Assembly (NCBI GenBank): GCA_947632545.1
Contig: CANRPP010000002.1
Coordinates: 2,057-66,056 of the forward strand
Length of the DNA: 64,000 nt
Origin: an uncultured Bacilli bacterium
GTDB lineage: Bacteria > Bacillota_I > Bacilli_A > RF39 > UBA660
Reading direction: 5' to 3'
Position numbers and translations under genes: made by a program. The notes beneath the pieces were generated by a model. The model ran no database searches. It saw nothing but the letters and a program-made list of their open reading frames with translations, and was not told the origin of the DNA. Below, in pieces: positions 4,873-28,989 of this stretch (position 1 is its first letter; every line of letters starts with the position of its first letter).

Positions 4873-4906
4873 GAAAAAAAAGTAATCTGAATTATTACAG
4901 ATTACT
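4873..4906 (-). terminator. intrinsic terminator closing the accessory island operon
   Basis: 9-bp perfect stem AGTAATCTG / CAGATTACT with an 8-nt loop. On the minus strand it is followed by TTTTTTTT (plus-strand A-run 4873..4880). Confidence 0.6.
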
Positions 4907-6207: not shown

Positions 6208-6228
6208 AATAACACCTCGTTTCTATAA

Positions 6229-8409: not shown

Positions 8410-8443
8410 ACTGCAACTTCCTTTCTGGGTATATTATAACACA

Positions 8444-9232: not shown

Positions 9233-9240
9233 ATTGCCTC

Positions 9241-11097: not shown

Positions 11098-11117
11098 TAG
11101 TAATCACCTGCTTTTTA

Positions 11118-12908
11118 CTATAGTCCTCCACCACTACCAAATGAATCTAATTCATCTTTAGTAACAGTTATATTAATTCTCATACGCCTATTTCCACATA
11201 CAAATAAGGCTTCACCTTGAGAATAACTTTTTATACTTTCTTTTTCACTATCATTTAAATCTATTAACAAACCTAAATCTTCTACAGCTTGTTTTCTTAA
11301 TCCCATAATTAAATAGTATGACGCATTATCAAAGATTGCTTTACCTTGTGTAATAATTTCTTGAGATGCAAAATCACTTGGTTGTTGAGTTATGATTATA
11401 GTACCTGTATTATATTTACGAGCACGTCTTTGTACTTGTGCTAAAAAGTCTGCTCCTAGGCTATTATGATCACCTAGTAATACATGTGCTTCATCAATCA
11501 TAAGGATTGTATCAACTGTTGGATCAAGACATAATCCCCAAGCATATTTTAAAACATTAAAGAATAAAGCATTTTTAACATTAGAATCACTATTCATTAA
11601 TTCTTTTATATTAAATACCATAAAATCACTATTTTGATTTATAGTTGTATGTCCATCAAAGTAAAATTTTAATTCTTTTGTAATTGGTCTTACTTTTAAC
11701 TCAAGACGTTCCATAATATCCCTTTCTTGAGTTTGTTCTGTCATTGACATTAATTTACCTTTAATAGTTGCATAAACATCACTAAAAGTTGGATAATCTT
11801 CTGAAGTAAAACCAGAGAAATCTGTATTATAATCTATTCCAAATCTTTTATATGTATCTTGTACTATTTCACTAAACATCGTTAGTACATCTTCTTCAAT
11901 TGATGGATCATAGTATTTCATAAAGGCTTTTAAGAATTGTAAAGTTCTTGTAAGTACTGTATAACCTAGTCCTTGTTTTATTTCTTCTTCATCTGCATCT
12001 ATTACAACTTCAAGGGGATTTATTAATCCAAATTCTCCACCTTTACCAATATCTACTTGATCTCCACCAAAAGTTCTTGTAATTTCAGCAAGTTCATTTT
12101 CTGGATCTATTGCAACTATCTGGCATCTATTTCTAATATGTGTTCTAAGCATTAATTTAGCAGCTGTAGATTTACCTGAACCAGATGTACCTAAAATAAT
12201 CATATTAGCATTATTTCTATTATTTTCTTTTCTAATTTTATATAAAAATTGATTAAATAAAATTACTCCTCCAGAAAAATCAACACCAAGTAAGGTAGAA
12301 AGTCCTGGATCTTTTATACTATCAAATATAAAAGGATACATTGCTGCTATAGTAACAGATGGTATAGGAGTTCCAATACGTTCTTCTATATCTTGAGATG
12401 GGAATATTGGTAAAATTGATTTTAATACTTTTTCTTGTTCAAATCTTAATGATACAGCACGTAAATCCATAGCGTCTAAATAGTTTTTGACATTTACTTT
12501 TTTAAGTTCTAATTCTTCTTTAGTATCAGCAGTAATCATAATGTGCATTTGAAAATCAAAAATACGTGCTTGTGATGCTGCTAACATTGAAATAAAATAT
12601 TCCAAACTTTCATAATCTTGTCTAATTCTTTCTTTTGATGTTTGATCTTTTTCTTTAGTATATCTTTCTTTTAAATCAGCAACTTGTTTATTTAACATTT
12701 TAGAAATCATACTAAATGGTACAGGAATATGTTTTACAACTATTTTTATTCCAGACATACTTGTTAATGTAGATAAATATCCCGGACTAATATATCTAGG
12801 ATATGATACAACTGTTAAGATTGTTGCATATTTATCACTTATAAAGAAATCACTTGGACTAAAGTGAAGTCCTTTAGGAGCAATTTGTCCTCTAATACTT
12901 ATACTCAT
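11118..12908 (-). CDS. VirB4/TrbE/ConE-family T4SS ATPase (C-terminal 596 aa)
   Basis: Walker A GTSGSGKST, Walker B ILMIDEAHVL, overall VirB4 architecture. Start overlaps the stop of the upstream ORF (ATGA coupling). Confidence 0.85.
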   Translation of the reverse strand: MSISIRGQIAPKGLHFSPSDFFISDKYATILTVVSYPRYISPGYLSTLTSMSGIKIVVKHIPVPFSMISKMLNKQVADLKERYTKEKDQTSKERIRQDYESLEYFISMLAASQARIFDFQMHIMITADTKEELELKKVNVKNYLDAMDLRAVSLRFEQEKVLKSILPIFPSQDIEERIGTPIPSVTIAAMYPFIFDSIKDPGLSTLLGVDFSGGVILFNQFLYKIRKENNRNNANMIILGTSGSGKSTAAKLMLRTHIRNRCQIVAIDPENELAEITRTFGGDQVDIGKGGEFGLINPLEVVIDADEEEIKQGLGYTVLTRTLQFLKAFMKYYDPSIEEDVLTMFSEIVQDTYKRFGIDYNTDFSGFTSEDYPTFSDVYATIKGKLMSMTEQTQERDIMERLELKVRPITKELKFYFDGHTTINQNSDFMVFNIKELMNSDSNVKNALFFNVLKYAWGLCLDPTVDTILMIDEAHVLLGDHNSLGADFLAQVQRRARKYNTGTIIITQQPSDFASQEIITQGKAIFDNASYYLIMGLRKQAVEDLGLLIDLNDSEKESIKSYSQGEALFVCGNRRMRINITVTKDELDSFGSGGGL

Positions 12909-13513
12909 GAAGTCATCACCGTCCCAAATTCAGTAGTACTGCCACCATTTAAGAAATTATCTAAAATTACTCTTAAATCATCATTACTAACTTGAGTAGA
13001 ATTTAAACCACATGTAGCAAGTCCATTTATTAATAATCTAATTTTCTTTTGAATTTTATCATCATCTTTTTCTTTAAATAAGAAGTAATACTCTGTATCA
13101 ACAACATTATTATTAATAAAAGTATTACATTTATCAATATCTTGTAATATTAATTTTCTAATAGCTTGATTATTAGTTGAATTTAATTCAAGTTGAAGTT
13201 GAGAAATATAAACAGAAATATCTACTGGTCTATCAGCAACTACTAACCAAAATTCAAAATCAATCATATTATAGAAATTTTTAAGTCTAAGCAAGACATT
13301 ATCTTGAGCATTAGCATCTAATATGAAAATATTTTTAGGAGTAATTTTTACACCTGATACTTTATTATTTCCATATGTTATAATAGTACTATTTTCAATT
13401 GCTTTAATTGGTAGCCAGTCTTCACTTGATCTTTTTATGTTTTTGCTTTTTGATTCCAAGTCCAATACACCATCCTTTCCATTCATATTTTCTTTGATTT
13501 TTAAAGAATTCAA
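12905..13513 (-). CDS. probable N-terminal domain of VirB4, encoded as a separate ORF
   Basis: Translationally coupled to the VirB4 ORF (202 + 596 = about 800 aa, typical VirB4 size). Its 5' end overlaps the VirB3-like ORF by about 90 nt in another frame. Confidence 0.4.
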   Translation of the reverse strand: MNSLKIKENMNGKDGVLDLESKSKNIKRSSEDWLPIKAIENSTIITYGNNKVSGVKITPKNIFILDANAQDNVLLRLKNFYNMIDFEFWLVVADRPVDISVYISQLQLELNSTNNQAIRKLILQDIDKCNTFINNNVVDTEYYFLFKEKDDDKIQKKIRLLINGLATCGLNSTQVSNDDLRVILDNFLNGGSTTEFGTVMTS

Positions 13514-13754
13514 TTAATTCTGAAATAACAATTAACATATTATGATAATATGGAACCGGCACTACTAGGAAACCTGTTACAAGTGCGGGCAATAATATTA
13601 ATATTGTAATTAATGTTGATGTCATTTGAATAGTTATTAAAAATATTAAAGTAATAAATATACCTGTACCAAACAATATTAAATCTATTGGTCTAAATAA
13701 ACCTAAAATTAGTTGTCCCTTTTTTGTATTGGCAGGGATTAAATAATTATTCAC
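13422..13754 (-). CDS. VirB3-like small membrane protein
   Basis: 110 aa with two hydrophobic helices, immediately upstream of VirB4, as expected for VirB3. Confidence 0.4.
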   Translation of the reverse strand: MNNYLIPANTKKGQLILGLFRPIDLILFGTGIFITLIFLITIQMTSTLITILILLPALVTGFLVVPVPYYHNMLIVISELIEFFKNQRKYEWKGWCIGLGIKKQKHKKIK

Positions 13755-13772
13755 TATATCACACTCCCTTTA

Positions 13773-15848
13773 TTAATCAAATTTACCTGGATTTAATGGA
13801 TCCCAGCTATTATCACGTTTTCTATCACGTACAGGGTGATCATTTCTATCTCTTATAACATTACCTTCATTATCATATACAATTTGTCCTCTACCTAGCA
13901 CTCTATCAGCCATAGATTGATGATCTGTACCATAATTAACTTTATTTCTTTTAGCCATAAATGGTCTTCTATATTGTTCTTCAAATGTTGGTTCAATACG
14001 ATGTTGTTCAGCAAATTTAGCGGCTTCTTCATAGTGATTTTTAGCCTTACCATAAGTTTTCTTTTGGTCTTCATATCTTTTATATAATTGATCTTGAATA
14101 TCAAATTTGCTAAGTTTGTTACCATCTTTATCCTTAATATAGAATTTTCCACTAGAATCCTTACCTGTTGTATAACCCATATTTTTATATTCTTGTCCAC
14201 CAAAGATATTGTTTAACTCTTCATCTGTCATTTGACCATTTCGTAATTTTTCAAGATCACCTTGTTTTCTAAATAATTCGTTTTCTTGTTCATACATATT
14301 ACCTTTAGCTTCTTCCAAGCCTGCATGAGTAACACCATATCTTTTACCTGCTTGTCTAATCATAGCGCCGCGAGTTAAATTATCATTTAATCTATTAACA
14401 ATTCCACCTTTAGCTTTTTCGTTTCCGGTTCTAATCTGGGCGGCTAAATCTCTTCCTGTACTCCAAGCTGGAGGAGCTTCTTTTCCTTGAGCTGATGCCA
14501 TAGCAGAGTTTTCTGAGGCATTAAGTCCTCCTGCTATTGCTCCTTTTAATCCTGCACCACCTACTAAAGAACCTGTTGCTCCTAATAATCCTGATAATCC
14601 AACATTTGACATCATACCCTTAAGTCCTAAAGCATCACGAATAAATTTTGGAGCCATTTTAGCAAAATAGAATAAACCAATTATTATAAATATTGTTGAT
14701 ATTATTCCGACAACACCATTAGCAATTGGAATATCTAATCCATTTTCACATATTTCTTGAACTAAGAATATTACAAAGTATATAATGGCTAATCTTATAA
14801 ATAAGTCAACATATGTTGATATTAATGCTTTAGTCCATGCTGCAAATGAACCATTTTCACTAGATTTTGGATCAACATAACTAATTATTGGAATTGGTGC
14901 TAATAACCTTAAAATTGCAAGTTTAATAGCCCTTATTGCAATATCAATACAATAACTAATTAATACAAGAAGTATTAAAATACCACATATAGTTGATACA
15001 ATAGGAAGATATGTAACTAGGTAGTATGGCTTACCATTCATAGGGCCATCACCACATTGTTCATATATAACATCTGTCCCAACAATATCATATATATCTT
15101 TACCATTATTATAAGCAGCTATTTTTTCTTGTTCATCATCACTATAATTAGGACTACATATATAATCATCATCAGTTATTGTCCCTTTATCTGCTGCACC
15201 ATCTTTTAAATTAATTCTTACAAATCCTTTTAATATAAAAACTGCGAGATCATTTGCTTGATTTATTATTGGATCCTCATCATCATCTTGATCTTCACTA
15301 ATTTTATATCTTTCAGTGTCATTACTAAATACTAATTTACCTAAAACATTACCTTTTAAAATTCTCTCTTGGAGTGAATACATTACACCAAAAAGTAATC
15401 CACTTTGATTTAAATGATAATTAAAACTTTTTACATTATTACTACTTTTAGCATTTTCAATTTCAGTTTGTGTTAGTGGAATATTCAAAGGTATTATTGC
15501 TGCAAACATAGCTAACATCATAACAATTCTTGTTATGATTTTACCCATTCCTTTTTTTTGATCAGTTAAATAATCAGGATTTATAACTGCTTGTAAGAGT
15601 GATATAGATAATTTAAATATCATAAAAACACCAATTATAAGCTGAACCCTACCATAGAAATCTTTTATAGTGTTGGATGAAAATATAGTAGTATCTGCAA
15701 TATTAAATAGTATTTTATAGACAACTGTAACTAATGAGTATACTCCCCAATCAATAAGTCCAAAAAATACTCTAAAGGCATCTACAAAAATATTAGGTTT
15801 ACTATGATTACTACTTAATGAAAAACCAATTTGCCACATCACTCTCAC
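13773..15848 (-). CDS. VirB6/TrbL-like polytopic membrane protein with C-terminal soluble extension
   Basis: 691 aa with 6 or more transmembrane helices in the N-terminal two-thirds and a Gly-rich linker (GLSGLLGATGSLVGGAGLKGAIAGG). Resembles Gram-positive VirB6 homologues (ConG/TcpH-like). Confidence 0.55.
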   Translation of the reverse strand: MRVMWQIGFSLSSNHSKPNIFVDAFRVFFGLIDWGVYSLVTVVYKILFNIADTTIFSSNTIKDFYGRVQLIIGVFMIFKLSISLLQAVINPDYLTDQKKGMGKIITRIVMMLAMFAAIIPLNIPLTQTEIENAKSSNNVKSFNYHLNQSGLLFGVMYSLQERILKGNVLGKLVFSNDTERYKISEDQDDDEDPIINQANDLAVFILKGFVRINLKDGAADKGTITDDDYICSPNYSDDEQEKIAAYNNGKDIYDIVGTDVIYEQCGDGPMNGKPYYLVTYLPIVSTICGILILLVLISYCIDIAIRAIKLAILRLLAPIPIISYVDPKSSENGSFAAWTKALISTYVDLFIRLAIIYFVIFLVQEICENGLDIPIANGVVGIISTIFIIIGLFYFAKMAPKFIRDALGLKGMMSNVGLSGLLGATGSLVGGAGLKGAIAGGLNASENSAMASAQGKEAPPAWSTGRDLAAQIRTGNEKAKGGIVNRLNDNLTRGAMIRQAGKRYGVTHAGLEEAKGNMYEQENELFRKQGDLEKLRNGQMTDEELNNIFGGQEYKNMGYTTGKDSSGKFYIKDKDGNKLSKFDIQDQLYKRYEDQKKTYGKAKNHYEEAAKFAEQHRIEPTFEEQYRRPFMAKRNKVNYGTDHQSMADRVLGRGQIVYDNEGNVIRDRNDHPVRDRKRDNSWDPLNPGKFD

Positions 15849-15874
15849 CTCGTTTCCTTTTTATTTTATTGTAA

Positions 15875-16315
15875 TTAGCAACTTGCACTATTAGTGGTAA
15901 GTCCAAATATACTTAATAATATACTTGTAATGGTTGGTACAAAGAATAATGCTGCTGCTGCTATTAATCTTTTTACAAATTTTGATTGAGCTTTTTTCAT
16001 ATTTTCATCATCAGAAGTTATTATTGCTTTTACCATATCAATACTTCCTAATACTACTGCAATAGTAGGTCCAAGAACCTTAATATAATTCAATACTTTT
16101 TGAATTAACCATGCAGTTGATGTTGAATCACTAACGTCACCAAAAATTGCATTATTAATACCACTGCAATTATTTATATCTATTGCTATATATGGAACAG
16201 CATCATTATAATCAATATTTTTAGCTTCAATATTAATGGGTACTAATAGCAAGATTGATGTAATTACTATAAATATTTTCTTACTCATTAATAACACTTC
16301 CTTACAATAACACAT
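15875..16315 (-). CDS. VirB2/TrbC-like pilin-like protein, paralogue 2 (signal peptide)
   Basis: Signal peptide plus C-terminal hydrophobic helix. Shares the SIDMVKAIITSDDENMKKAQSKFVKRLIAAAALFF motif with the upstream paralogue. Confidence 0.4.
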   Translation of the reverse strand: MCYCKEVLLMSKKIFIVITSILLLVPINIEAKNIDYNDAVPYIAIDINNCSGINNAIFGDVSDSTSTAWLIQKVLNYIKVLGPTIAVVLGSIDMVKAIITSDDENMKKAQSKFVKRLIAAAALFFVPTITSILLSIFGLTTNSASC

Positions 16316-16331
16316 ACTATTATAATTATAA

Positions 16332-16370
16332 CAAAAAAAAAAGTAAATAGCAATTATTATTGTTATTTAC
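16332..16370 (-). terminator. intrinsic terminator/attenuator between the two pilin-like paralogues
   Basis: On the minus strand: hairpin GTAAATAACAAT-AAT-AATTGCTATTTAC followed by TTTTTTTTTT. Confidence 0.5.
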
Positions 16371-16377
16371 CTTTTTA

Positions 16378-16719
16378 TTAAGCATCATTCCAGCATGTAA
16401 ACCAATTAGTTGAATCAACTTTAGTTTCAGTCTTACTTCCTTGTTGACTTTCACCTACAAGTTTCATCAATAGGTTTACTAAAAGTACTATAAAGAAAAT
16501 TGCTACTGCATATATACAACGCTTAATAAGTCTTGATTGTGCTGCCTTAACTTCTTTATCATCACTAGAAATTACAGCTTTTCCTAAATCAATTGTACCA
16601 AATAAAATCAATATTATAGGTATACCCCATTGTATAATAGTAAATACTGCTTTAACTAATTTAATAAGTGGCATCAAACTATTACAATAATTTATACCTA
16701 ATTGAAATAAATCTAACAT
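16378..16719 (-). CDS. VirB2/TrbC-like pilin-like protein, paralogue 1
   Basis: 113 aa with two hydrophobic helices and the motif TIDLGKAVISSDDKEVKAAQSRLIKRCIYAVAIFF. Strong promoter directly upstream. Confidence 0.4.
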   Translation of the reverse strand: MLDLFQLGINYCNSLMPLIKLVKAVFTIIQWGIPIILILFGTIDLGKAVISSDDKEVKAAQSRLIKRCIYAVAIFFIVLLVNLLMKLVGESQQGSKTETKVDSTNWFTCWNDA

Positions 16720-16744
16720 AAATACATCTCCTTTAACTAATATA

Positions 16745-16774
16745 ATTGTACATTATTTTATTACTATCTGTCAA
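16745..16774 (-). promoter_or_regulatory. sigma-A-type promoter upstream of the pilin-like gene
   Basis: On the minus strand: -35 TTGACA (16769..16774), 18-nt spacer, -10 TACAAT (16745..16750). Confidence 0.45.
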
Positions 16775-16795
16775 CAAAATTATTTTTACTTTACA

Positions 16796-17770
16796 TTATC
16801 GTTTAAATAAACCAAATATATTTTTACCATCACTTTTTTTAGCAGCAGTTGCATCACCTATTCCTAGTCTTCCTAGAAAATCATTAAGTATTACATTTTT
16901 CTTTCTTTCATCTAGTGGTGGTAAATTATAAAATACTTTTGAATTAGATTCATATTCAAATTCAGTAACATCTTTATTAGTTAATAAACTTTTATTTAAA
17001 ATGATTTTTTTACCTAGAAGTTTTTCAAAAATTCTTCTATTATTTTTTATTAATTTATTTAATTTAATAGAACTAGGTTCTATTAAATATATGACTTCAT
17101 CACAAATACTTTCATCTTTATAGTCATTTAAATCTATTAATACCATTTTAGCAGTATATATATCTCTTAATTTTGATTCAACATCCATTTCTCCAACAGA
17201 TATTAAATTTTTATCATTAAATACAGAAAAATCTTTTTTTCCTATTTCTATTCCATAAATATTAGGTCCAAACATATCAGTCAATTCTTTTTTTAACATG
17301 TATAACAAAGTGGTAGCCCCAGCATGTTCAGTAATATTTCTAATACCTAGAATTTTTATTCCGTTTGTAGTATTATTAATTCTTTCGGCTCCACCACTTA
17401 ATTGTTGAATATTTGCAACATCTTTATATTCATTTGGTTTAGCAATTAAATTTTTAATTGCATTAATATTATTAGTAAAATTATATACACCAATTGACAC
17501 TAAATCTGACAAATAATTTGACTGACATACATCATCTGTTAATACTAATATAAGTTTACTTTCACCTAATCCTATAGATATTTTTTTTATAGCATCTATA
17601 TTTTTATAGTTCTTTACGGCTGTAATATCAAGTATCATTTTATCATAAAAAAAGTCTTTGAACATAGCAACTAATTCATCTGCTTCATATTCACCAGTAA
17701 CATTTTTTATAACATCTATATCTAAGTTTGATAGAGTGCTACTTCTTTCGTTAGCTACTATTACATTCAA
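16796..17770 (-). CDS. TadZ/CpaE-like protein with degenerate P-loop (probably non-catalytic)
   Basis: N-terminal receiver-like region. A central segment ILGIRNITEHAGATTLLYML aligns with the MinD/ParA deviant Walker A (KGGxGKTT), but the invariant Lys is Ala. Position at the end of the Tad cluster. Confidence 0.35.
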   Translation of the reverse strand: MNVIVANERSSTLSNLDIDVIKNVTGEYEADELVAMFKDFFYDKMILDITAVKNYKNIDAIKKISIGLGESKLILVLTDDVCQSNYLSDLVSIGVYNFTNNINAIKNLIAKPNEYKDVANIQQLSGGAERINNTTNGIKILGIRNITEHAGATTLLYMLKKELTDMFGPNIYGIEIGKKDFSVFNDKNLISVGEMDVESKLRDIYTAKMVLIDLNDYKDESICDEVIYLIEPSSIKLNKLIKNNRRIFEKLLGKKIILNKSLLTNKDVTEFEYESNSKVFYNLPPLDERKKNVILNDFLGRLGIGDATAAKKSDGKNIFGLFKR

Positions 17771-17787
17771 AATATCACCTTCTTATA

Positions 17788-18249
17788 TTATTGACATGAG
17801 CTCGAACTATGGACTTCACTTCCTGGATTTTTACCATTATCTGGATTTATCGTAATTGTATCACCTGTAACAACCAAAAAATTTACACCTGCTATTTTAT
17901 TTAATATTGGTATATTCATTACAGAAGATGTTATTACTTTAAAATAACCAGAATTTTTTCTACCATTTTCTATCCATGCAACACAATATCCTGGCTGACT
18001 ACAATCAAAATTACATGGAACATTTGAAATTTTATCATTAGTATTATATCCTACTTCTTCCATGGCAGCAGTTATATCTGCCTTTGTTTCAGAATCAAAA
18101 GCCTCATGTTGCTCAAGTATTTTGATAATTTTATTTTTAACCCTAAAAGCCTTATTATAACTCACAGAAAAAGCAAGGTATCCACTTATAATAAGCATGA
18201 ATACACCTATAAACATAAGACTAAATATTCCACCTATTGAATCACGCAT
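17788..18249 (-). CDS. TadE-like pseudopilin/minor pilin candidate
   Basis: 153 aa with an N-terminal transmembrane helix; located directly downstream of the Flp-like pilin. Confidence 0.3.
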   Translation of the reverse strand: MRDSIGGIFSLMFIGVFMLIISGYLAFSVSYNKAFRVKNKIIKILEQHEAFDSETKADITAAMEEVGYNTNDKISNVPCNFDCSQPGYCVAWIENGRKNSGYFKVITSSVMNIPILNKIAGVNFLVVTGDTITINPDNGKNPGSEVHSSSSCQ

Positions 18250-18272
18250 ACACTATATTCTCCTATTGGAAT

Positions 18273-18467
18273 TTATTGATTGGGCCATTCTTGTGTTCCT
18301 TCATGGTCTGTAGAAACATTATCTATATCAGACCATTGACTATTAATTGAATTTTTAATTTGTGGCCATAAAACTGCTCCAAAAAAACCCATAACTAACG
18401 CTATAGCTACTATTGTAATTACTGTTAAATTTAATTCTCCAGTTGCTGCTTTCATATAGAAAAACAC
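18273..18467 (-). CDS. Flp-type (type IVb) pilin candidate
   Basis: 64 aa with a short polar leader (MFFYMKAATGE) followed by a single 22-aa hydrophobic helix. Sits between the TadC and TadE-like genes. Lacks the canonical Flp G/XXXXEY motif. Confidence 0.45.
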   Translation of the reverse strand: MFFYMKAATGELNLTVITIVAIALVMGFFGAVLWPQIKNSINSQWSDIDNVSTDHEGTQEWPNQ

Positions 18468-18489
18468 ATCCTTTCATATTATATATAAT

Positions 18490-18518
18490 TAGTATACCTC
18501 AAATATTAATAAATAACA
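18490..18518 (-). promoter_or_regulatory. promoter-like element upstream of the Flp-like pilin gene
   Basis: On the minus strand: -35 TTGTTA, 17-nt spacer, -10 TATACT, then GAAAGGATG ribosome-binding site. Confidence 0.35.
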
Positions 18519-18537
18519 ATATTTTTAATTTTTTATT

Positions 18538-19320
18538 TTAGTAATTAAACATTTGTAACATTGCAAATAATATAACAATCATAACACCAACACCTGTACA
18601 GACAAGCATTATCATTGTTAAACTTTCCATTTTATCAAGTCTTTCTTTATATTTAACTTCTCTTGCTTTATTTTGTAAACTTGACACTGATCTTGAAAAC
18701 ATCATAAGTCTTTCTTGTTTTCGCTCTTGTGAACCTATACCTAAACGATATAAAAGTCTCATCATTCTCATTGAATCTCTTACTGGATAAGTATTAGCAA
18801 ATTCCATATAAGGTTCAACTGATGCATCTCCTGCATTTACTCTTTCAACTATTTTTCTTAATCCAGGTTTAAATACATCAGGTGCATCATCAATTGATTT
18901 ACCAATTGCTACTGGAACAGTATAATGTTGGATTAATATTTCCAAACTCTTTAAATAATATGGTAGTAATATATCTATTTCATGTAAATGTTTTTTATAA
19001 TATGATTTTAGTGAACTATAAGTTGATTTAAATACTAAAAATGCTATTACAATTGCTATAATTACATTTACAAATTTAATTTCTTTCATAAAGAATATTA
19101 ATACTACAACTAATGAAATTAAACAATTTCTAATTCTATTTCTAAATATTATATCTGGGTCAGCTTCATCTCCATACTTGGCATAAACATAAAAATCAAA
19201 ATCTTCTTCACGTAATAATTCAAAATATTTTTCATTATCTTTTAGAAATTTTTTGCCATCTATTGTTTTATTATAAAACAATATAAATATAATTATTCCA
19301 CATACTATAATTATCGCCAT
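18538..19320 (-). CDS. tadC: TadC-like (T2SS-F domain) membrane protein
   Basis: 260 aa with an N-terminal transmembrane segment, a cytoplasmic domain and C-terminal transmembrane segments. Downstream of the TadB-like gene. Confidence 0.55.
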   Translation of the reverse strand: MAIIIVCGIIIFILFYNKTIDGKKFLKDNEKYFELLREEDFDFYVYAKYGDEADPDIIFRNRIRNCLISLVVVLIFFMKEIKFVNVIIAIVIAFLVFKSTYSSLKSYYKKHLHEIDILLPYYLKSLEILIQHYTVPVAIGKSIDDAPDVFKPGLRKIVERVNAGDASVEPYMEFANTYPVRDSMRMMRLLYRLGIGSQERKQERLMMFSRSVSSLQNKAREVKYKERLDKMESLTMIMLVCTGVGVMIVILFAMLQMFNY

Positions 19321-20213
19321 TATTCAGCACCTACATTCTCATTATAATATATTTCACCTTTTAATAAAAAAGCTGTGTTTATAATTAATACTGCATGTAG
19401 TACTAATTTACATAATAAATTATCAAGTAATAATAAGTATTCCTCATCTCCAAGTAAAAATTGTACTGTTATAACCATTAAATATAACATTACACCAAAA
19501 CCCAAAAATTGCTTATGAAAGGTCTTTCTATCTATTCTATCTCTATATACACTTTCTACTAACATATCAATATCAAGCTGCATATTTTCCAAACTATCCA
19601 TAGAATTTTGTGCACCTTCTTTTGTTATTTGTAAAAAAAGTTGATGCATATTTTTAACTATATAATATGGATATAAATTACTAAAATATACTAAAGATTC
19701 ATCTATACTACCATTTTGATAAGCTAAATCAATCATATGATTAACATCAGTTTTAACAGGATCATCTAAAAGTCCTGAATCCCTAACACCTTCTATTGCT
19801 TTTACAAAAGATTGTGTAGTTGCAAATTCCATAATGGTATTTGAAGTATATACTTGTATTTGTTCAAATAAAAATTCACTATATTCTCTTTTACATCTTA
19901 AATATGCTAAATATGGGACAAAACAAATTGATACTATAGTATAAAAAATTGACGTTGGAATGCTATAAAAATATAAATATGAAACGATAGCTGTTCCCCC
20001 TGCAATAGTTACAACTTGAATTGCATATTGCCTAGGAGTATATTCTCTTCCAAGTTGTTTAGTTTTTTCTCTTACAACTTTAAATGAGTATGGTGCTACT
20101 CTATCATATACAGATCCTAATTGACTACTAAAAAACTTTGATAGATCTTGTCCTTGATATTTTCTAACAAATAATATAAGTAGTGCTATTAATAATAGTA
20201 GAAAAAATACCAT
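19320..20213 (-). CDS. tadB: TadB-like (T2SS-F domain) membrane protein
   Basis: 297 aa with the same topology, immediately downstream of the CpaF ATPase gene. Confidence 0.55.
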   Translation of the reverse strand: MVFFLLLLIALLILFVRKYQGQDLSKFFSSQLGSVYDRVAPYSFKVVREKTKQLGREYTPRQYAIQVVTIAGGTAIVSYLYFYSIPTSIFYTIVSICFVPYLAYLRCKREYSEFLFEQIQVYTSNTIMEFATTQSFVKAIEGVRDSGLLDDPVKTDVNHMIDLAYQNGSIDESLVYFSNLYPYYIVKNMHQLFLQITKEGAQNSMDSLENMQLDIDMLVESVYRDRIDRKTFHKQFLGFGVMLYLMVITVQFLLGDEEYLLLLDNLLCKLVLHAVLIINTAFLLKGEIYYNENVGAE

Positions 20214-20239
20214 TTTATTTGCCCCTTTCCATTAATTTA

Positions 20240-21619
20240 TTATACTTGTCCTACATTTACTGGATTAACAACTGGTGGAGTTGGCACTTTAGTTTGTACC
20301 ATTGTTTGAGTAGGTTTAATATTTTGATTTTGTATTCCGGTTTGTACATTTACATTCTGTACTTTTGGTATAGCTGGATTAACAGTTGGTGGTACTACAG
20401 ATTGTACAGGTTTTTGTTGAGGCGTAGGAACTGCTTGAGTAGGTACCCCTGTATTAACTATTTGAGGCTTTGGTTGTTGGATATTTTGATTTACAGGTTG
20501 TTGTTCATTATTAGCAAGAGATTTCTCTACATTTGCAGCTATTACACTTTCAATATCTATATCTTTCATATGACCAGTTACTGAATTAATATCAATATTT
20601 TGATTTTCTAAATATTCTATTAAGTGTTCACTAGGTCTAGATTGAATAGGTTCTTGTCCATATATTTTTTTATATATAGTATGAGTTTGAGGATTATTAT
20701 CATCATCAACATAGAACTCAACTACTTCATCAATTTCACGATGAAATTTTCCATATTCTTTACTATAATATGCTTTTATGTGTATACCAAGTTGAATATA
20801 TCTATATATTGTATTTAAAAATTGATTAACTTCTTGATCTGTTTCCATTAAACTATATAAACGATATGGAATAGCACTTGCTTTATCAGCATGAATTGTT
20901 GATAAAATATTATGTCCTGATGATATAGAGTTACGTACAGCACTAACTGCTTCAGCACTACGTACCTCTGATAATAAAATCCATTTAGGATTTTGTCTCA
21001 TACATGTAACTAATACATCAGAATAACTAGCCACATTATTTGTTTTCATTGCTACAATATCTCTTTCAGGAAATATTTTATCCAAGTGTAATTCCAAAGT
21101 ATCTTCTATTGTTATAATTTTTTCATCTGATTTAGTATGACTTGCTAGATATTTAAGGAATTCAGTTTTACCAGAACCAGTTTCTCCACAGACTAAAATA
21201 TTACAGTGTCCTTCTACACACTTTATTAAAACATCATGTATATCTTGAGTGAAATAATTATCTTTTAATAATCCTTCTTTTTTAAGTCTTATTTTTGCAG
21301 GTGTTTTACGTATAACACAAGCAATTCCATTAGTTGCAATAGATTGATGTACAAAGTTAAAACGTAATTCTGTAGATTCTGCATCTAAAAATGGTTTTGC
21401 ATTATTAAAAGTTGTTCCCATTACATTTGAACATTGAAATGCTAATTTTTCCATAAATTCTGCAGTAACACCTGGTATTTGTTTTCTAATAGAACCTTGA
21501 GTTAGAGAACGAATCCAAATTTGTCCGCGGTTGCAGAATGAAATATCAGTTATATCATCATCATCTAAAAGAGGTTGCAATGGCCCAAAATCTAGCTTAT
21601 CAAAAATGTTTTCATCCAC
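20240..21619 (-). CDS. CpaF/TadA secretion ATPase (T2SS-E/VirB11 superfamily) with Pro/Gln/Val-rich C-terminal extension
   Basis: Walker A VCGETGSGKTEFLKYL, Asp box and His box region (GHNILSTIHADKAS). About 110-aa low-complexity tail (QQPKPQIVNTGVPTQAVPTPQQKPVQ...). Confidence 0.85.
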   Translation of the reverse strand: MDENIFDKLDFGPLQPLLDDDDITDISFCNRGQIWIRSLTQGSIRKQIPGVTAEFMEKLAFQCSNVMGTTFNNAKPFLDAESTELRFNFVHQSIATNGIACVIRKTPAKIRLKKEGLLKDNYFTQDIHDVLIKCVEGHCNILVCGETGSGKTEFLKYLASHTKSDEKIITIEDTLELHLDKIFPERDIVAMKTNNVASYSDVLVTCMRQNPKWILLSEVRSAEAVSAVRNSISSGHNILSTIHADKASAIPYRLYSLMETDQEVNQFLNTIYRYIQLGIHIKAYYSKEYGKFHREIDEVVEFYVDDDNNPQTHTIYKKIYGQEPIQSRPSEHLIEYLENQNIDINSVTGHMKDIDIESVIAANVEKSLANNEQQPVNQNIQQPKPQIVNTGVPTQAVPTPQQKPVQSVVPPTVNPAIPKVQNVNVQTGIQNQNIKPTQTMVQTKVPTPPVVNPVNVGQV

Positions 21620-21652
21620 ACTAACTCACTATCCTTCCCTATTATATTCTTT

Positions 21653-22459
21653 TTATTCTCCTGTCCATACAGTAATATTATTAATGTAGTCTTTTAATTC
21701 TTTACTACTTAATTTTAATTCACCTGGATCATCTTTTAAACTTTCATCAGTTGGTACAGGAATTAATGTTGTATCAACAGATCTTAAATATTTAGATTTC
21801 ATAAGTAAAATATAATATTCATCAGGTACTGCAAAAATAATAGTTGCTGGAGTACCTTTCTGATCCAAATTAGCAAATACATTATCACCATTTGCATCTT
21901 GTACTGCTAAAACTTTAATATTTTGTAATAATTTACCTACCATAATCTTATCTGTTGTTACGATATCAGATCCTTCGGCAGTAGCTTCTTGAGCTTTTAA
22001 ATATAAATCAATATAATTACCTGGTGCTATTGAATTACCATAAGTTGTTTCTGTAGTAACAGAAAGATAAAATAATACATAGCCTTTAGGATAATCATAT
22101 ATTATTGAATCTGGTAATTGATCCTTTGTTACAATTAATCTTTTATAAAATAAACTACCCTCTGGTATAATACTATCAGCGCTAGAATATTTATCTATAA
22201 CATCACTTCTATTTGTAAATGCCATACCATCTGATACTGTTTGGCTAGAAACACTTTTAGTTCCTATCATTTCACTAGTAATTTGAGTTCCTGGTGATAT
22301 TGTTTCTTTTGCATAAGGAACTTCTATAGGAGTTATTGCTTTATTTACTTTAGAGTTATATCCAAAATATAATACACATACTGCTGCAACAACTCCTAAT
22401 ATTGTTACTGTGTTTTTATTTGCTAAAAATTTCTTTATACCTACGCCTAAATTTCCCAT
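21653..22459 (-). CDS. cpaB: Flp pilus assembly protein CpaB/RcpC-like
   Basis: N-terminal transmembrane segment, SAF-like segment (ISPGTQITSEMI) and C-terminal RcpC-like region (NIKVLAVQDANGD). Confidence 0.6.
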   Translation of the reverse strand: MGNLGVGIKKFLANKNTVTILGVVAAVCVLYFGYNSKVNKAITPIEVPYAKETISPGTQITSEMIGTKSVSSQTVSDGMAFTNRSDVIDKYSSADSIIPEGSLFYKRLIVTKDQLPDSIIYDYPKGYVLFYLSVTTETTYGNSIAPGNYIDLYLKAQEATAEGSDIVTTDKIMVGKLLQNIKVLAVQDANGDNVFANLDQKGTPATIIFAVPDEYYILLMKSKYLRSVDTTLIPVPTDESLKDDPGELKLSSKELKDYINNITVWTGE

Positions 22460-22473
22460 TTTATTCTCCTTTA

Positions 22474-22971
22474 TTATTCTTTTCCATATACATTTCCAGT
22501 TTGTTTAAGCTTTGTTGCTACTGGGTTTTCTTTTACTTCTGATACTAATATACCATCAAGTCTATTTTGAATGATTACATTATTATTATCTTCAGCTTTT
22601 TTTTGATCTTCACTTGTAAAATTAGTTCCTGCAGGATTCCAACTTTTATTACCTGCCTTTACTTCTACACTAACTTTAGGTGGAACTTCATTAATATCAA
22701 CCATTCTTATTTCATAATTTCTTGCATTGTTTACAGCGTTAGCAAACCTAAAGATAAAGCTTTCAACAAATTTTTCTTTATCCATTCTTAAAGTACCATT
22801 TTTGTAATAATAATTATAATCAATAGCATCAGTCATAGCAGCTTGAGTTGATTCTTTTAATGTATAATAATCAAGCTCATTACCCATTGAATAATTTCCT
22901 ATTAAATTAATTCCTGCTAAAGCTATAATTCCTAATAAAATAATTCCTACTGTTAAAAATGCTTTATTCAT
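22474..22971 (-). CDS. membrane-anchored protein, possible TadE/TadF-like minor pilin
   Basis: 165 aa with an N-terminal transmembrane helix; first gene of the Tad-like block. Confidence 0.3.
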   Translation of the reverse strand: MNKAFLTVGIILLGIIALAGINLIGNYSMGNELDYYTLKESTQAAMTDAIDYNYYYKNGTLRMDKEKFVESFIFRFANAVNNARNYEIRMVDINEVPPKVSVEVKAGNKSWNPAGTNFTSEDQKKAEDNNNVIIQNRLDGILVSEVKENPVATKLKQTGNVYGKE

Positions 22972-22991
22972 ATCATTTCACCTCGCTATAA

Positions 22992-25900
22992 TTACCTTAA
23001 TTTACTTATATCCTTATAATTATTATTTGTACCTTGTCCATTTGATATTGGTCGTACATTAGAAGCATAATTTATAATTATCTTACTTCCATTTTTAAAG
23101 CTTTTACCATTCAAATCATCTATCACTTTACTAGTATATCTTAAAAGTCCTAATATTTTTGGATCTTCCTTAAAATTACCAGTATAATCTGTATATTTAT
23201 GGTTTTTATATTCATTTTTTATGTAATCTATTCCTTCACTAGGTATATAAATATAGTAATCAGATTCTGTAGTTGAACTATATATAGTTTCATCTTTTTC
23301 TTCACTTCTTAAATATTCAACATATTTTTGTGGATCTATACCATATGTTTGAGAATATTGATTATTATTATCTATACCAGCTACTATTTTTGCAGCACTT
23401 GTCCAGTTATATCCTTGTTTTTGATTGCTATTTTCAGTAAATAATTCACCTTGATCTATAACTTTAAATTTATATGATTGATTCTCATGACAAGGAGGAT
23501 TTTTACAACCTACGTCATCTCCTGGAGGAGGTATAGGTATGTTATCACTATCACTACTATTATCATAAATTCCATAGAAACATGAATAATTTATTGTCCA
23601 ATTATATTTACCAAAATTTAAGGCTTGAGCTTGAATATTATTTTTTATTGTTGGCTCTTGTATAGTTGGATATAAAAGGTTTCCATCTTTATCTTTTGTC
23701 TGCTCGTGCCAATGCCACCATGCAACATTTATATTACTACTATCTCTTGGGAAACAATATGTTTGTCCATGAGGTGCAGAACCAGTTTTACATGTAGAAT
23801 CGTATTCTGGTTCTAATGATTTATCATTTATCCAAGTACCTGGGAATGTTATTGTAGTTTGATATTGTGGACTTTGTGTAGTTCCATCATAACACCAACC
23901 TAAAATACCATATTTAGATTTAGGTTCTTCACTATCAGCTGGAACAAACATTGAAAAGACATGACTTGAAGGAGGATCTTTTTTATTTTCATCACAAATA
24001 TTGTTTTCTGATATAGGATTTGTATTTCCTAATTCAGTTTTTCCATTTTTTTCTACTTCATTATTAGTATTACTATCTCGAGGATTTATTATTTTTATTT
24101 TGAAATCAGCTGTTTTTTCTGTTTCTTTACAGTCAGCTGATACTTGACAACTATCAAGTGCATCAGCAATTATTTTCATATCACTTTTAGTTGTGGTTTT
24201 GTCACTATTTTCTGCTATATTTAAGTTATTTACAAATGCATCAGGTGTTAGAGAATTTTTTGCACTACATCCTGTATATTCACATATTTCACCACAATGC
24301 CAATTAGTACTTGCTTTATATTGTCTTTTTACACCATCTTTATCAATATAATATGTAGCATTATTATGTGGATCTTTATCTAACACAGCTAAAATTAATT
24401 GTTTTGTAGCAGCTTTATCTCTTAAATAGAATGGTGAAGCTTTTCCTAATGCACACCAAATATCTTTTTTATTCTTATAATTACTACAATTTAGGTCACT
24501 CTTCCATTTAGATCCATCTTTATTATAATGTCCTTTTGGATATAATGCTTTAGCTTCAAAGAAATATTCTGAACACCAATCAAGATCATTTAATATTTCA
24601 TTTTGTGTATCACATTTACCTACAGCTGTAGATTTACTACTATAACCTTTAAGATTTTTTTCATCCCAAGTATGTAAATCTTTAACCTCTAATAAATTAT
24701 TACTATTGTTTTTTTCTTCAAATACTAGATTACTTAATTCTGATTCTTCTATAGCTTTATCATTATTACTAGTTTTTTCTATATTATTTTTCTCAACATC
24801 TTTTTTATTATTTTCATATACTTGTTTATAACATTTATTTATACAACTTTGACTATATTTTCCATTATCACACTCTTTTATACATTTATCAAAATCTTCA
24901 GATGGCCCAGCTTGTGTATGATTTTTTTCTCCAGAACATATAGGTATAGGAGAACACATTTCTTTTTGAAGTTTTCCAACCAATCCTCCATTAGTATTAG
25001 TATTAGAACCTTCAATTATCTCTTTATTATATTTAACACCACATTTAGTTTCACTTTTTACTGTAACTTTATACGAAATACATATTCCTGCTATAGCTGC
25101 TACAGGAGGATCGTACTCAACAGTTAAATGTTCATAACATATTGTATTACATATAGTTGGAGATGATCCATCAGATAATGGCTCACTAGTTGCAATAGGT
25201 TTATCTTCAACATATAAATATTGTTTACTACCAATGCCCTGTTTCAAATCACTTTCACATTGCAAACTAACATTTGTATTAGAAACTGTTTTTACATTTT
25301 TATCTGCTTGTAAGTCAGTAACATGTTTTTTTACTTCATCATATGTATTAGCATAGCCTGATGTACTTTCTGATTTTTTTGATAATTTTTTACTTTTATA
25401 ATACATTTCCATAGCACTATTTGCAAGTTGAGCTATCTGCTGTTCAGTTATATTAAATGCAACAGATTTTTTATTGCAATAAAAGGTTCCTAGTAATGGA
25501 TCATAGTAATGTTGTTGATAATATGCTCTTTCTGCTTCTGGAACTGTATATTTTTTATCATCAGCAGCTATTTTTTCACCAAGTTCTGTTTTTGAATCAT
25601 ATTTTCCATCACGAGCATTAATACAAGCTTCATTATATTCTCCATCTATTCCTCTTAAATTTTTAACTTCTATAGTTTCGTCTGGATTTTGAATATATTC
25701 TGATGCAGAAACACCAGATAAAGCCATTACACCATCTGCCATTCTTGTTTGTTCTCTTCCGTTTATACATGATACTTCAAATTTTTTACCTTTATCATTT
25801 TTACATTTTTTATTAGTTTTTGTATCCTTTGATAAATAAACTACAACAAGAGCATCATAGCCAGGATTTAGCTTAACATTTACAACATTATCCCCACTAT

Positions 25901-26390
25901 CTCTGGAAACTTCAATTGCCTTATACTTTTTTTCTAATTTTTTAGAATCACTTGCTATCTTTGTTTTATAAACTTTTAATCCATCGTCTAAATCATCATT
26001 ATCTAAATCATCAATATCTTTATCTAAATTAATAAAACTACTATCATCAAGTGTTCCATATTTTCCATAAAATACTCTAATTCTATAAACTGCATTTTGA
26101 GTAAGTGCTGCTTTTGGAACTGTTATTTTTATATTTCTTGGTTCACTACTATTTACATACTCATGGAAACCATTATACCATGCTTTTTTTGAGTATTTAC
26201 TAACATCAATTGATATTTTAAAATCTGATTTGCATATATTATTTGCACATGTTTTGCATTTTGCAGTAGTACAATTAGATCCTTTACCATTAGCTGATTC
26301 TCTAACTTCAGCAAAAGTATTTTCGGGACTAATTAGAAATAATAACCCTATGCATATAATTAAACTTAATATTATTTTTTTAATTTTCAT
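22992..26390 (-). CDS. 1132-aa secreted cysteine-rich protein (candidate adhesin or pilus-associated protein)
   Basis: Signal peptide MKIKKIILSLIICIGLLFLISPENTFA. Dozens of Cys throughout, no transmembrane segment, no LPXTG-like C-terminus. ATGA overlap with the sortase gene. Confidence 0.55.
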   Translation of the reverse strand: MKIKKIILSLIICIGLLFLISPENTFAEVRESANGKGSNCTTAKCKTCANNICKSDFKISIDVSKYSKKAWYNGFHEYVNSSEPRNIKITVPKAALTQNAVYRIRVFYGKYGTLDDSSFINLDKDIDDLDNDDLDDGLKVYKTKIASDSKKLEKKYKAIEVSRDSGDNVVNVKLNPGYDALVVVYLSKDTKTNKKCKNDKGKKFEVSCINGREQTRMADGVMALSGVSASEYIQNPDETIEVKNLRGIDGEYNEACINARDGKYDSKTELGEKIAADDKKYTVPEAERAYYQQHYYDPLLGTFYCNKKSVAFNITEQQIAQLANSAMEMYYKSKKLSKKSESTSGYANTYDEVKKHVTDLQADKNVKTVSNTNVSLQCESDLKQGIGSKQYLYVEDKPIATSEPLSDGSSPTICNTICYEHLTVEYDPPVAAIAGICISYKVTVKSETKCGVKYNKEIIEGSNTNTNGGLVGKLQKEMCSPIPICSGEKNHTQAGPSEDFDKCIKECDNGKYSQSCINKCYKQVYENNKKDVEKNNIEKTSNNDKAIEESELSNLVFEEKNNSNNLLEVKDLHTWDEKNLKGYSSKSTAVGKCDTQNEILNDLDWCSEYFFEAKALYPKGHYNKDGSKWKSDLNCSNYKNKKDIWCALGKASPFYLRDKAATKQLILAVLDKDPHNNATYYIDKDGVKRQYKASTNWHCGEICEYTGCSAKNSLTPDAFVNNLNIAENSDKTTTKSDMKIIADALDSCQVSADCKETEKTADFKIKIINPRDSNTNNEVEKNGKTELGNTNPISENNICDENKKDPPSSHVFSMFVPADSEEPKSKYGILGWCYDGTTQSPQYQTTITFPGTWINDKSLEPEYDSTCKTGSAPHGQTYCFPRDSSNINVAWWHWHEQTKDKDGNLLYPTIQEPTIKNNIQAQALNFGKYNWTINYSCFYGIYDNSSDSDNIPIPPPGDDVGCKNPPCHENQSYKFKVIDQGELFTENSNQKQGYNWTSAAKIVAGIDNNNQYSQTYGIDPQKYVEYLRSEEKDETIYSSTTESDYYIYIPSEGIDYIKNEYKNHKYTDYTGNFKEDPKILGLLRYTSKVIDDLNGKSFKNGSKIIINYASNVRPISNGQGTNNNYKDISKLR

Positions 26391-27162
26391 TTAAATCGTC
26401 TCCTTTTAATATTTTTTTTATTTTATTATAGTTACTTTTTTCAGTAACTTTATAATTATTTATTATTTCTAATTTTCTCACTTGTCTTGCATCTACAACA
26501 AAGGAATAATCAGAATCACCATAGAATCTTGTGCAAGTGACTAAAGTTAATATTTTGTCGTCTTCAGACACATCCACATTAAATTTAAAATAACTTCTAT
26601 CTATGGAATTTTTTATATAGTCCCTTTTTTCTTTTTTATCTATATTATATAATTCAACATCTTCTTCAGGTTGTAAGTATACTGCATATATTTTAAATAA
26701 ATAATTTTTTCCATTTATTGTATATTGAATATACTTATTATCTTTTACAAAATCATAATAGATATATGACATTAACTGTTCAAATCTAGCTTGATTTTTA
26801 TCTGCAATTAGTGGTTTAGAAGATACGTTTCTCATATTATGTGATAATAGTACAGTTCTATTTACTAATTTTTTATTATCTTCAAAACTCCATCCTAAAT
26901 CATATGACGGATCACTAATATCTTCTATACTATTATAGTAAAATATAGGAAAATCAATATTAGTTCCTTGTACTCTTAACCAACCTAAAGGTTTAGATAC
27001 TACATTACTAAAATTTGATTTTGTAATTTGTTTTGTTCTATCTTTAGTTCTATAGTAAGGTCTTAATATAATTATTGATAATAAACATGCCACTAATACA
27101 ATTATAATAGTTATAGATTTTGGTTGTAATTTGTTTTTTAATTTTTTTTTGTTCTTCTTCAT
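26380..27162 (-). CDS. sortase (class B-like transpeptidase)
   Basis: N-terminal transmembrane anchor and the catalytic TLxTC signature (KILTLVTCTRFYG); 260 aa. Confidence 0.7.
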   Translation of the reverse strand: MKKNKKKLKNKLQPKSITIIIVLVACLLSIIILRPYYRTKDRTKQITKSNFSNVVSKPLGWLRVQGTNIDFPIFYYNSIEDISDPSYDLGWSFEDNKKLVNRTVLLSHNMRNVSSKPLIADKNQARFEQLMSYIYYDFVKDNKYIQYTINGKNYLFKIYAVYLQPEEDVELYNIDKKEKRDYIKNSIDRSYFKFNVDVSEDDKILTLVTCTRFYGDSDYSFVVDARQVRKLEIINNYKVTEKSNYNKIKKILKGDDLNEN

Positions 27163-27186
27163 ATATTTACACCTATCATATATATA

Positions 27187-28980: not shown

Positions 28981-28989
28981 ATTTATCTC

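Follow-up and report, generated by a model that had tools for sequence, protein, structure and literature searches.

Does a run of eight genes that escapes most curated protein families encode a Tad (Flp) pilus, and what is its relation to the type IV secretion system (T4SS) beside it? The question is raised by positions 16796-22971 of a 64-kb stretch of DNA from an uncultured Bacilli bacterium (contig CANRPP010000002.1), hereafter the window, to which all positions refer. A preliminary description of the window had presented these genes as a complete Tad pilus gene set embedded in a T4SS island. We find that the region probably codes for a monoderm Tad-like (type IVc-like) filament machine of very divergent sequence, recruited beside the T4SS. 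Judged from its gene content, the set would work like a monoderm Tad pilus yet fails most tests of sequence membership. The claim of a genuine Tad machine is borne out in part, in that a Tad-like type IV filament module is present, although a divergent one.

The window has a G + C content (GC) of about 25% and carries almost all of its genes on the minus strand. The eight open reading frames (ORFs) are co-directional on that strand, span 16796-22971 with intergenic gaps of -1 to 82 nucleotides, and stand at the positions and in the order first described (Table 1). Pfam scans covered the non-antisense ORFs of at least 90 residues and several smaller ones. Curated hidden Markov models (HMMs) of Pfam and NCBIfam match only three of the eight proteins. 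Two of these matches, to the ATPase (T2SSE) and the CpaB-like protein (RcpC), are among the families one would look for in a Tad system, and the third is to DUF5411; T2SSF, Flp and TadE went unmatched. For the other five, proposed as TadB, TadC, Flp, TadE and TadZ, neither Pfam nor NCBIfam gives a match at E ≤ 1. To call the set complete was an overstatement, because a prepilin peptidase gene is absent from the window and neither the pilin nor the minor-pilin candidates match a Flp or TadE model.

The 459-residue motor ATPase scores 98 bits against T2SSE (Pfam cutoff 24.9). Its Walker A (residues 145-152), Asp box (169-176), Walker B (214-220) and His box (241-244) motifs are intact, and by these motifs the enzyme is catalytically intact. 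The closest solved structures are those of FlaI (3e-21) and CpaF (7e-19), in both cases with alignments spanning the N- and C-terminal domains, whereas the alignment to VirB11 structures (4e-14) is confined to the P-loop part, residues 139-261. T2SSE membership and the nearest structures are compatible with the CpaF label originally given to this protein, but every subfamily HMM scores under its cutoff. One of these models, TIGR03819, matches residues 11-257 at 1.7e-29, with 103 bits against a cutoff of 373. The protein ends in a low-complexity tail of about 130 residues (residues ~330-459; 20240-20630 of the window) that is rich in V, Q, N and P. The tails of orthologues in the lineage differ in length and sequence, several finishing in VDFSSLG(N/S)LE.

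The two polytopic proteins encoded downstream of the ATPase, of 297 and 260 residues, would form the platform. Neither matches T2SSF (PF00482) at E ≤ 1, nor does any of 18 members of the TadC-like family, and the model is matched by 2 of 26 distant TadB-like relatives (best 2.3e-5). An AlphaFold2 model of the TadB-like protein, built from an alignment that included the most distant full-length relatives (predicted local distance difference test, pLDDT, 83), is predicted to adopt the GspF/EpsF/PilC cytoplasmic fold, with EpsF as the top Foldseek match (TM-score 0.72). The two families are related to each other: hhalign aligns residues 99-237 of the TadC-like protein with residues 102-240 of the TadB-like one, which is the cytoplasmic domain, with 96.8% probability and an E-value of 2e-10. 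The same comparison restricted to RF39 sequences was weak (34%), and significance came on adding distant relatives. The predicted membrane topologies are identical, and the start of the TadC-like gene overlaps the upstream stop codon by 1 nucleotide. Each protein thus places a single GspF-fold cytoplasmic domain between transmembrane segments, and two such single-domain paralogues argue for a TadB/TadC arrangement rather than for one two-domain PilC. The TadB and TadC assignments are upheld by the fold of the larger protein and the paralogy of the smaller one. The T2SSF membership on which the preliminary description had staked them fails at the HMM level, where only the fold evidence and the two distant relatives rescue it. 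The TadB-like family is large but closed, with more than 8,000 matches at 90% clustering, the best 120 all at least 70% identical and unnamed, and 195 matches among 1.8 billion representatives at 50% identity. Searched as profiles against PDB sequences, the TadB-, TadC- and TadZ-like families gave nothing meaningful.

Upstream of the ATPase gene, the CpaB-like protein, with a predicted transmembrane segment at its N terminus, passes RcpC (PF16976) membership barely, scoring 28.9 bits where the cutoff is 28.8, which bears out its first naming. It also matches TIGR03177 (pilus_cpaB) at 4e-11 over 190 residues (20-213), under the cutoff, and its orthologues likewise carry RcpC matches. The first gene of the module, in stand-alone versions as well as here, had been called TadE/F-like. 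Its product belongs instead to DUF5411 (PF17424; 142.8 bits against a cutoff of 30, residues 1-142), and TadE (PF07811) was matched neither by it nor by the 153-residue protein encoded further downstream. The DUF5411 protein of the window begins with MNKAFLTVG, given as MNKAMLTVG in the comparison of N termini, followed by a hydrophobic helix, its one transmembrane segment, and in 73 orthologues G9 is invariant and precedes a hydrophobic stretch.

A pilus needs a pilin, for which the small ORF next to the TadC-like gene is the candidate. It had been described as a 64-residue Flp-like pilin, a length that corresponds to a mechanical ORF opening at GTG 18467. The start is most likely the ATG at 18455, giving 60 residues, because AAAGGA lies 13 nucleotides upstream, gene calls in related contigs have 60-61 residues and the orthologues all begin with MK. 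The small ORF is conserved in 82 of 89 related loci. Its N terminus, MKAATGELNLTVIT, is nearly invariant. Among 81 distinct orthologues residues 1-14 are almost fixed as M-K-[A/E]-A-[T/S]-G-E-L-N-L-T-V-I-T, with A4, G6, E7, L8, T11, T14, F24 and F25 invariant, and the C-terminal third differs among them in both length and sequence. A fixed N terminus with a variable C-terminal third is the pattern expected of a pilin. The pilin part of the earlier label is consistent with this pattern; the Flp part is not, as Flp_Fap and the other Pfam and NCBIfam models give no match at E ≤ 10.

The 60-residue, 153-residue and DUF5411 proteins each combine a short basic leader, a conserved glycine and a hydrophobic N-terminal helix. 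The first two have in common a leader-like motif, M-[KR]-x-A-x-G6; the 153-residue protein reads M-R-D-A-x-G before its hydrophobic helix, with G6 invariant in 78 orthologues and one N-terminal transmembrane segment. A rule of a basic leader, a glycine and then 18 uncharged hydrophobic residues, applied to all six frames of the 64 kb, picks six ORFs, three of which are these proteins. Two further ORFs that fit the rule, at 2533-2754 and 49073-49228 (minus strand; 73 and 51 residues), have no Pfam match.

How these candidates would be processed is less conventional. The preliminary description had noted that the canonical G/XXXXEY motif (slash, cleavage site) is missing from the candidate pilin and that no TadV is encoded in the region; both observations hold, and the Pfam scans extend the latter to the whole 64 kb. 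With cleavage after G6, the N terminus MKAATGELNLTV would carry T at +5. Cleavage may follow Gly6, or the leader may be the two residues MK, with Glu7 serving as 'Glu5', an idea that came from the L091 sequence MKEILQEYGG (L091 is one of the stand-alone loci described below); the two are inseparable by sequence.

The last of the eight genes encodes a 324-residue protein whose AlphaFold2 model (pLDDT 81) comprises two alpha/beta domains. Foldseek matches of the model include HypB, MeaB/IcmF, ParA, MinD and 3fkq from E. rectale, which we take to be the crystal structure of TadZ from Eubacterium rectale. The alignment to 3fkq runs over 390 columns, more than the length of either protein, and is read as covering both domains. 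The modelled architecture, a receiver- or flavodoxin-like domain with a ParA/MinD-class domain, supports a TadZ-like architecture without proving orthology to TadZ. HMM searches with the protein gave no match, so that the earlier TadZ-like call has the modelled two-domain architecture in its favour but no family match. The P-loop is degenerate: residues 147-154 read TEHAGATT, conserved in 27 sequences, and ATP hydrolysis by this protein is doubtful for that reason.

In the machine that we favour, the ATPase would dock on the TadB/TadC-like platform and polymerise the 60-residue protein into a thin pilus, which the two larger pilin-like proteins would prime or tip. The CpaB-like protein would be its guide across the wall, with the TadZ-like protein positioning the machine. 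An A24 peptidase encoded elsewhere would cut after Gly6, or leaders this short would need no cleavage. The module would have become fixed in its lineage beside a relaxase-less VirB4/VirD4/VirB6 T4SS and a surface-protein block. Its likeliest role, by analogy with the R64 thin pilus, Ups/Ced and the pili of Patescibacteria (see below), would be to establish or stabilise contact on behalf of the T4SS, with a partner cell or a substrate.

Several observations weigh against this interpretation. No T2SSF, Flp, TadE or ParA-type HMM matches the platform proteins, the pilin candidates or the TadZ-like protein. The hhalign comparison of the TadB-like family with E. coli HofC falls short of significance (E 0.22), although the expected motif region is aligned. 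The ATPase scores against the VirB11, TrbB, TadA and FlaI models of NCBIfam are nearly tied, all under cutoff, and do not separate these subfamilies. The candidate pilin lacks the canonical Glu5 and Tyr6. The structural matches of the TadZ-like protein have low TM-scores, 3fkq ranking 11th (E 2e-3, TM-score about 0.3), and its P-loop is without the Walker A lysine. The A24 prepilin peptidase is absent from the 64-kb window and also from the syntenic cluster of other species, because all genes of that cluster are orthologues of window genes. Finally, it is from fixed adjacency alone that we infer a functional tie to the T4SS.

Table 1. Module genes, the adjoining secretion system and the surface-protein block, with their positions in the 64-kb window.
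Feature	Position	Strand	Basis or remark
DUF5411 protein, candidate minor pilin-like subunit, 165 residues	22474-22971	-	DUF5411 8e-42
CpaB/RcpC-like bitopic protein, 268 residues	21653-22459	-	RcpC 1.1e-6
Motor ATPase, TadA/CpaF/FlaI-VirB11 group, 459 residues	20240-21619	-	T2SSE 5e-28
TadB-like platform protein, 297 residues	19320-20213	-	Polytopic, one GspF-fold cytoplasmic domain
TadC-like platform protein, 260 residues	18538-19320	-	Paralogue of the 297-residue protein (hhalign)
Candidate major pilin, 60 residues	18273-18455	-	MKAATG/ELNLTVITIVAIALV...
Candidate minor pilin, 153 residues	17788-18249	-	Starts MRDSIG/GIFSLMFIGVFMLII...
TadZ-like protein, 324 residues	16796-17770	-	Receiver/flavodoxin-like and ParA/MinD-class (SIMIBI) domains; AlphaFold2, Foldseek
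Monoderm-type T4SS (whole)	4906-16719	-	Pfam, Pfam matches of orthologues, collinearity
VirB2-like pilin, 113 residues	16378-16719	-	First of tandem pair
VirB2-like pilin, 146 residues	15875-16315	-	Second of tandem pair
VirB6/TrbL_4	13773-15848	-	Pfam TrbL_4
VirB3-like candidate	13422-13754	-	Small, two transmembrane segments
TraC-like protein	12905-13513	-	
VirB4	11118-12908	-	
SpoIID/C39 wall hydrolase	9241-11097	-	SpoIID and C39_2
262-residue protein		-	Between wall hydrolase and VirD4
VirD4	6229-8409	-	
433-residue protein	4906-6207	-	
Surface-protein block	22992-30552	-	Pfam; 1132-residue Cys-rich secreted, sortase-domain, Ig-like and 520-residue membrane proteins

The secretion system lies on the 3' side of the module, at lower coordinates, and the surface-protein block on the 5' side. 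The former has the VirB4, coupling protein (VirD4), VirB6 and wall hydrolase of a monoderm (MPF-FATA-like) T4SS, with Pfam matches to T4SS-DNA_transf (4e-60), P-loop_TraG/AAA_10, TrbL_4, SpoIID with C39_2, and T4SS_pilin. VirB2-like pilins are unusual for Gram-positive T4SSs. The 146-residue one matches T4SS_pilin (PF18895) and the 113-residue one has no match at all, but the motif GKAVISSDDKEVKAAQSRLIKR / VKAIITSDDENMKKAQSKFVKR is common to both. In a promoter scan of 13-31.5 kb, sigma-70-like sequences were no more numerous than in shuffled sequence. The top match, TTGACA-18-TACAAT (16745-16774, minus strand), falls in the 76-nucleotide gap between the TadZ-like and first VirB2-like genes. 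In the surface-protein block, whose genes are collinear with those of the module in some 70 loci, the sortase-domain protein (26380-27162; Pfam 3.8e-8) is conserved in the cluster, and LPXTG-type sorting signals, sought in the proteins encoded next to it, were not found. The Ig-like protein (27187-28980) and the 433-residue protein, at opposite ends of the cluster, have a common C-terminal ending, ...GKGTxxxPYxI, and cross-match in tblastn of related loci. The window is chromosomal, with rpoD, dnaG, polA, ileS, ftsZ/ftsA, pyk and murB/murE/murG/ftsQ at 36-64 kb. The murB/murE/murG/ftsQ and ftsZ/ftsA genes indicate that the host makes peptidoglycan.

The module also occurs by itself. Three distantly related loci from other low-GC Firmicutes (L090, L091 and L092) carry DUF5411, RcpC, T2SSE, TadB-like and TadC-like genes in this order, with a small ORF, a gene for a 115-135-residue protein and one for a very large protein. 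No T4SS gene was called around them, up to 10 kb on each side, and the genes next to them are ordinary ones for metabolism or restriction; the module is therefore autonomous. The equivalent small ORFs start with MKEILQEYGGFILSVV... and MKDYTGELVLVG... and have no Flp or TadE match in Pfam or NCBIfam; an x-Y-G-hydrophobic N terminus is common to the DUF5411 and 115-residue proteins of these loci. Their ATPases (339-364 residues) lack the C-terminal tail. In L091 the protein in the position of the 153-residue one (6549-6896; 115 residues) has a weak DUF4320 match (7.5e-4, under cutoff), which may link the minor-pilin candidates to that family.

Could the module, then, be a pseudopilus, a piston like that of a type II secretion system (T2SS), and serve not as an adhesive pilus but for the export or display of the large proteins, secreted or on the surface, that always accompany it? 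We regard this as unlikely, although a very large protein adjoins the module in every version seen: 1132 residues in the window, about 931-938 in Ca. Faecimonas-like loci, a PXO2_28_C protein of 859 in L091, and 892 and 1305 in L090. An internalin-like protein is likewise part of a related operon in Clostridia (Miller et al., PMC9523054), and the want of a canonical Flp motif in the pilin candidate would fit a pseudopilin as well. However, no secretion-substrate motif was identified, the 1132-residue Cys-rich protein has an ordinary Sec signal peptide, and CpaB, two single-domain platform proteins and a TadZ-like protein are parts of a Tad pilus rather than of a T2SS. The hypervariable C terminus of the small protein also suits a surface-exposed pilin.

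Two loci of a different lineage (L008 and L009; 29% GC) show another arrangement. There, CpaB (RcpC), TadB-, TadC- and TadZ-like genes (L008 9209-14539) stand directly before a VirB6-like gene whose product matches the VirB6 of the window (blastp E 6e-13), and neither between them nor just upstream is there a T2SSE ATPase, DUF5411 or small pilin ORF. Here, in a second lineage, Tad-like platform genes abut a T4SS gene. The arrangement keeps alive the reading that the Tad-like platform and VirB4/VirD4/VirB6 form one hybrid envelope-spanning apparatus, core to a genome-reduced gut lineage, to which we give a small chance. If that were true, the Tad motor and filament would give reach and contact while the T4SS translocon moved DNA or proteins to or from other gut bacteria, in a lifestyle that depends on contact, is possibly epibiotic or scavenging and has its analogue in Patescibacteria, and the pilin leaders would be so short that a prepilin peptidase may be dispensable.

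The same two loci, with their missing ATPase and pilin genes, could also suggest that no separate filament exists, the ATPase serving as VirB11 and the membrane, CpaB-like and TadZ-like proteins as lineage-specific T4SS subunits. The preliminary description had itself raised the VirB11 alternative. The best NCBIfam score of the ATPase is indeed to VirB11 (1e-31), with TrbB a close second, and the module is tightly packed and co-directional with the T4SS genes, the scan of 13-31.5 kb having found no terminator-like site inside the cluster on the minus strand. Yet in L090, L091 and L092 the ATPase, TadB-like, TadC-like, CpaB and DUF5411 genes occur together and no T4SS gene was called within the up to 10 kb on either side, which argues that the ATPase is part of the pilus module and not of the T4SS. 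Moreover, GspF-fold platform proteins partner type IV filament ATPases and not VirB11, and the VirB11 structures align over the P-loop domain only, where FlaI and CpaF align over both. The ATPase is thus probably not acting as the VirB11 of the adjoining T4SS, and the accessory-set explanation as a whole seems very doubtful.

A divergent Tad-like pilus beside the T4SS remains the reading we prefer, and its setting is best judged across species. Relatives of the TadB-like protein occur in 417 species-representative genomes, the best 80 of which are gut metagenome-assembled genomes labelled uncultured Tenericutes, Bacilli or Mycoplasmatota. They include Ca. Faecimonas and Ca. Onthousia, which NCBI places in Bacilli incertae sedis and which we take to belong to the GTDB order RF39. 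The eight genes are collinear in genomes of about 80 species of these uncultured gut Bacilli of low GC. The order is strict in all loci that are long enough: 520-residue protein, Ig-like, sortase-like, large protein, DUF5411, CpaB, ATPase, TadB-like and TadC-like, followed by the small ORF, 153-residue protein, TadZ-like, two VirB2-like, VirB6, VirB3-like, TraC-like, VirB4 and wall hydrolase. In loci centred on VirD4, the run from the 262-residue protein through VirD4 to the 433-residue protein is conserved, and the flank on the VirD4 side (rhodanese-VTT-RmuC-DUF3603-TrpRS) is syntenic across species. Pfam scans of the 64-kb window found no relaxase or integrase, the window has no repeat-bounded ends, the cluster does not differ in GC from its flanks, and a megablast search of 16000-23500 against plasmid and phage collections returned no match. 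These observations together identify an inherited core locus and not a mobile island. The term T4SS island does not withstand them: an integrative conjugative element or genomic island would have a relaxase, an integrase and a variable insertion site, against which stand the absence of both enzymes, the one syntenic flank and the collinear order. The cluster is a chromosomal supercluster of some 25 kb, fixed and inherited vertically. A PD-(D/E)XK family transposase-like gene (PDDEXK_2, 4.5e-19; 35064-36164), amid housekeeping genes outside the cluster, is the sole mobile-element-like gene seen in the window.

That the pilus might instead serve mating-pair formation in the transfer of an integrative conjugative element, with 5-30 kb as its mobile extent, is highly improbable on this evidence, even though conjugation systems of Gram-positive bacteria have VirD4, VirB4, VirB6 and a wall hydrolase at their core and type IVb thin pili aid the mating of IncI plasmids, according to work cited within PMC12102498.

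The reference systems for Tad/Flp (type IVc) pili are the tad genes of Aggregatibacter and the cpa genes of Caulobacter, and, among monoderms, the tad genes of Bifidobacterium breve, in which tadV is located elsewhere in the genome. The module resembles them in an ATPase whose nearest solved relatives are FlaI and CpaF, a pair of single-domain platform proteins, a CpaB/RcpC-like protein and a modelled TadZ-like architecture. Like them, it also has a very small pilin with larger pilin-like proteins that bear its N-terminal signature, and a peptidase that may sit elsewhere in the genome. It differs from them in that only the ATPase and CpaB pass family HMMs, the pilin reads MKAATG/ELNLT and not G/XXXXEY, the TadZ-like P-loop is lysine-less, the ATPase has a long low-complexity tail, no TadV lies in the locus and the module is fused into a supercluster with a T4SS.

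Closer precedents come from gut Firmicutes. A language-model screen described a 'secretion-related' operon of Roseburia, Ruminococcus and Eubacterium with CpaF, PilC/GspF, DUF5411 and an internalin-like protein (Miller et al. 2022, PMC9523054). Our module has the same elements (a CpaF-like ATPase, a GspF-like membrane protein, DUF5411 and a large surface protein), and L090-L092 resemble that operon. The published operon, however, is from Clostridia, has no T4SS and was given no functional assignment, whereas the present module is from an uncultured group of Bacilli and lies between surface-protein genes and a T4SS. In the uncultured gut clade TANB77, a divergent, structurally inferred Tad-like cluster has been reported (PMC11680825). 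By its description, it too comes from a gut Firmicute with a reduced genome in which the ATPase alone is detectable by sequence; CpaB, TadZ and TadB/C were seen by structure only, next to a series of short pilin-like proteins with one transmembrane segment, and no peptidase is listed. Unlike ours, it has a fused TadC-TadB, an extra CpaE and no adjoining T4SS. These two reports may serve as precedents for sequence-invisible Tad-like clusters and for the DUF5411 operon in gut Firmicutes.

The pairing of a type IV filament with a VirB4-type machine also has parallels, in the R64 thin pilus (IncI), the Ups/Ced systems of Sulfolobales and the type IV pili of Patescibacteria, genome-reduced bacteria with chromosomal, relaxase-poor monoderm-type T4SSs that include VirB2-like pilins (PMC12102498). 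Those filaments are type IVa, type IVb or archaeal, and adjacency in one conserved cluster is not their rule. They assist DNA-transfer machines, a role that is putative for the present cluster. Actinobacterial systems with the 'TadA family conjugal transfer-associated ATPase' (NCBIfam TIGR03819) are similar in their ATPase and in being a Tad-like set, tied to conjugal transfer by the name that NCBI gives it. The ATPase score here lies far under the TIGR03819 cutoff, and the phylum and gene set differ.

The host lineage, which is uncultured, genome-reduced and auxotrophic, is common in the guts of humans and animals, and our search of the literature on RF39 together with T4SS or Tad found no description of the cluster in this lineage. 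The supercluster brings a Tad-like filament machine together with surface proteins and with a T4SS that lacks a relaxase. Because most parts of a type IV filament can escape curated HMMs, Tad-like systems are probably undercounted in Firmicutes. The locus supplies a concrete candidate pilin, a motor and a partner T4SS and, collinear in every genome examined, the supercluster is a strong candidate for the means by which these bacteria interact with other cells.

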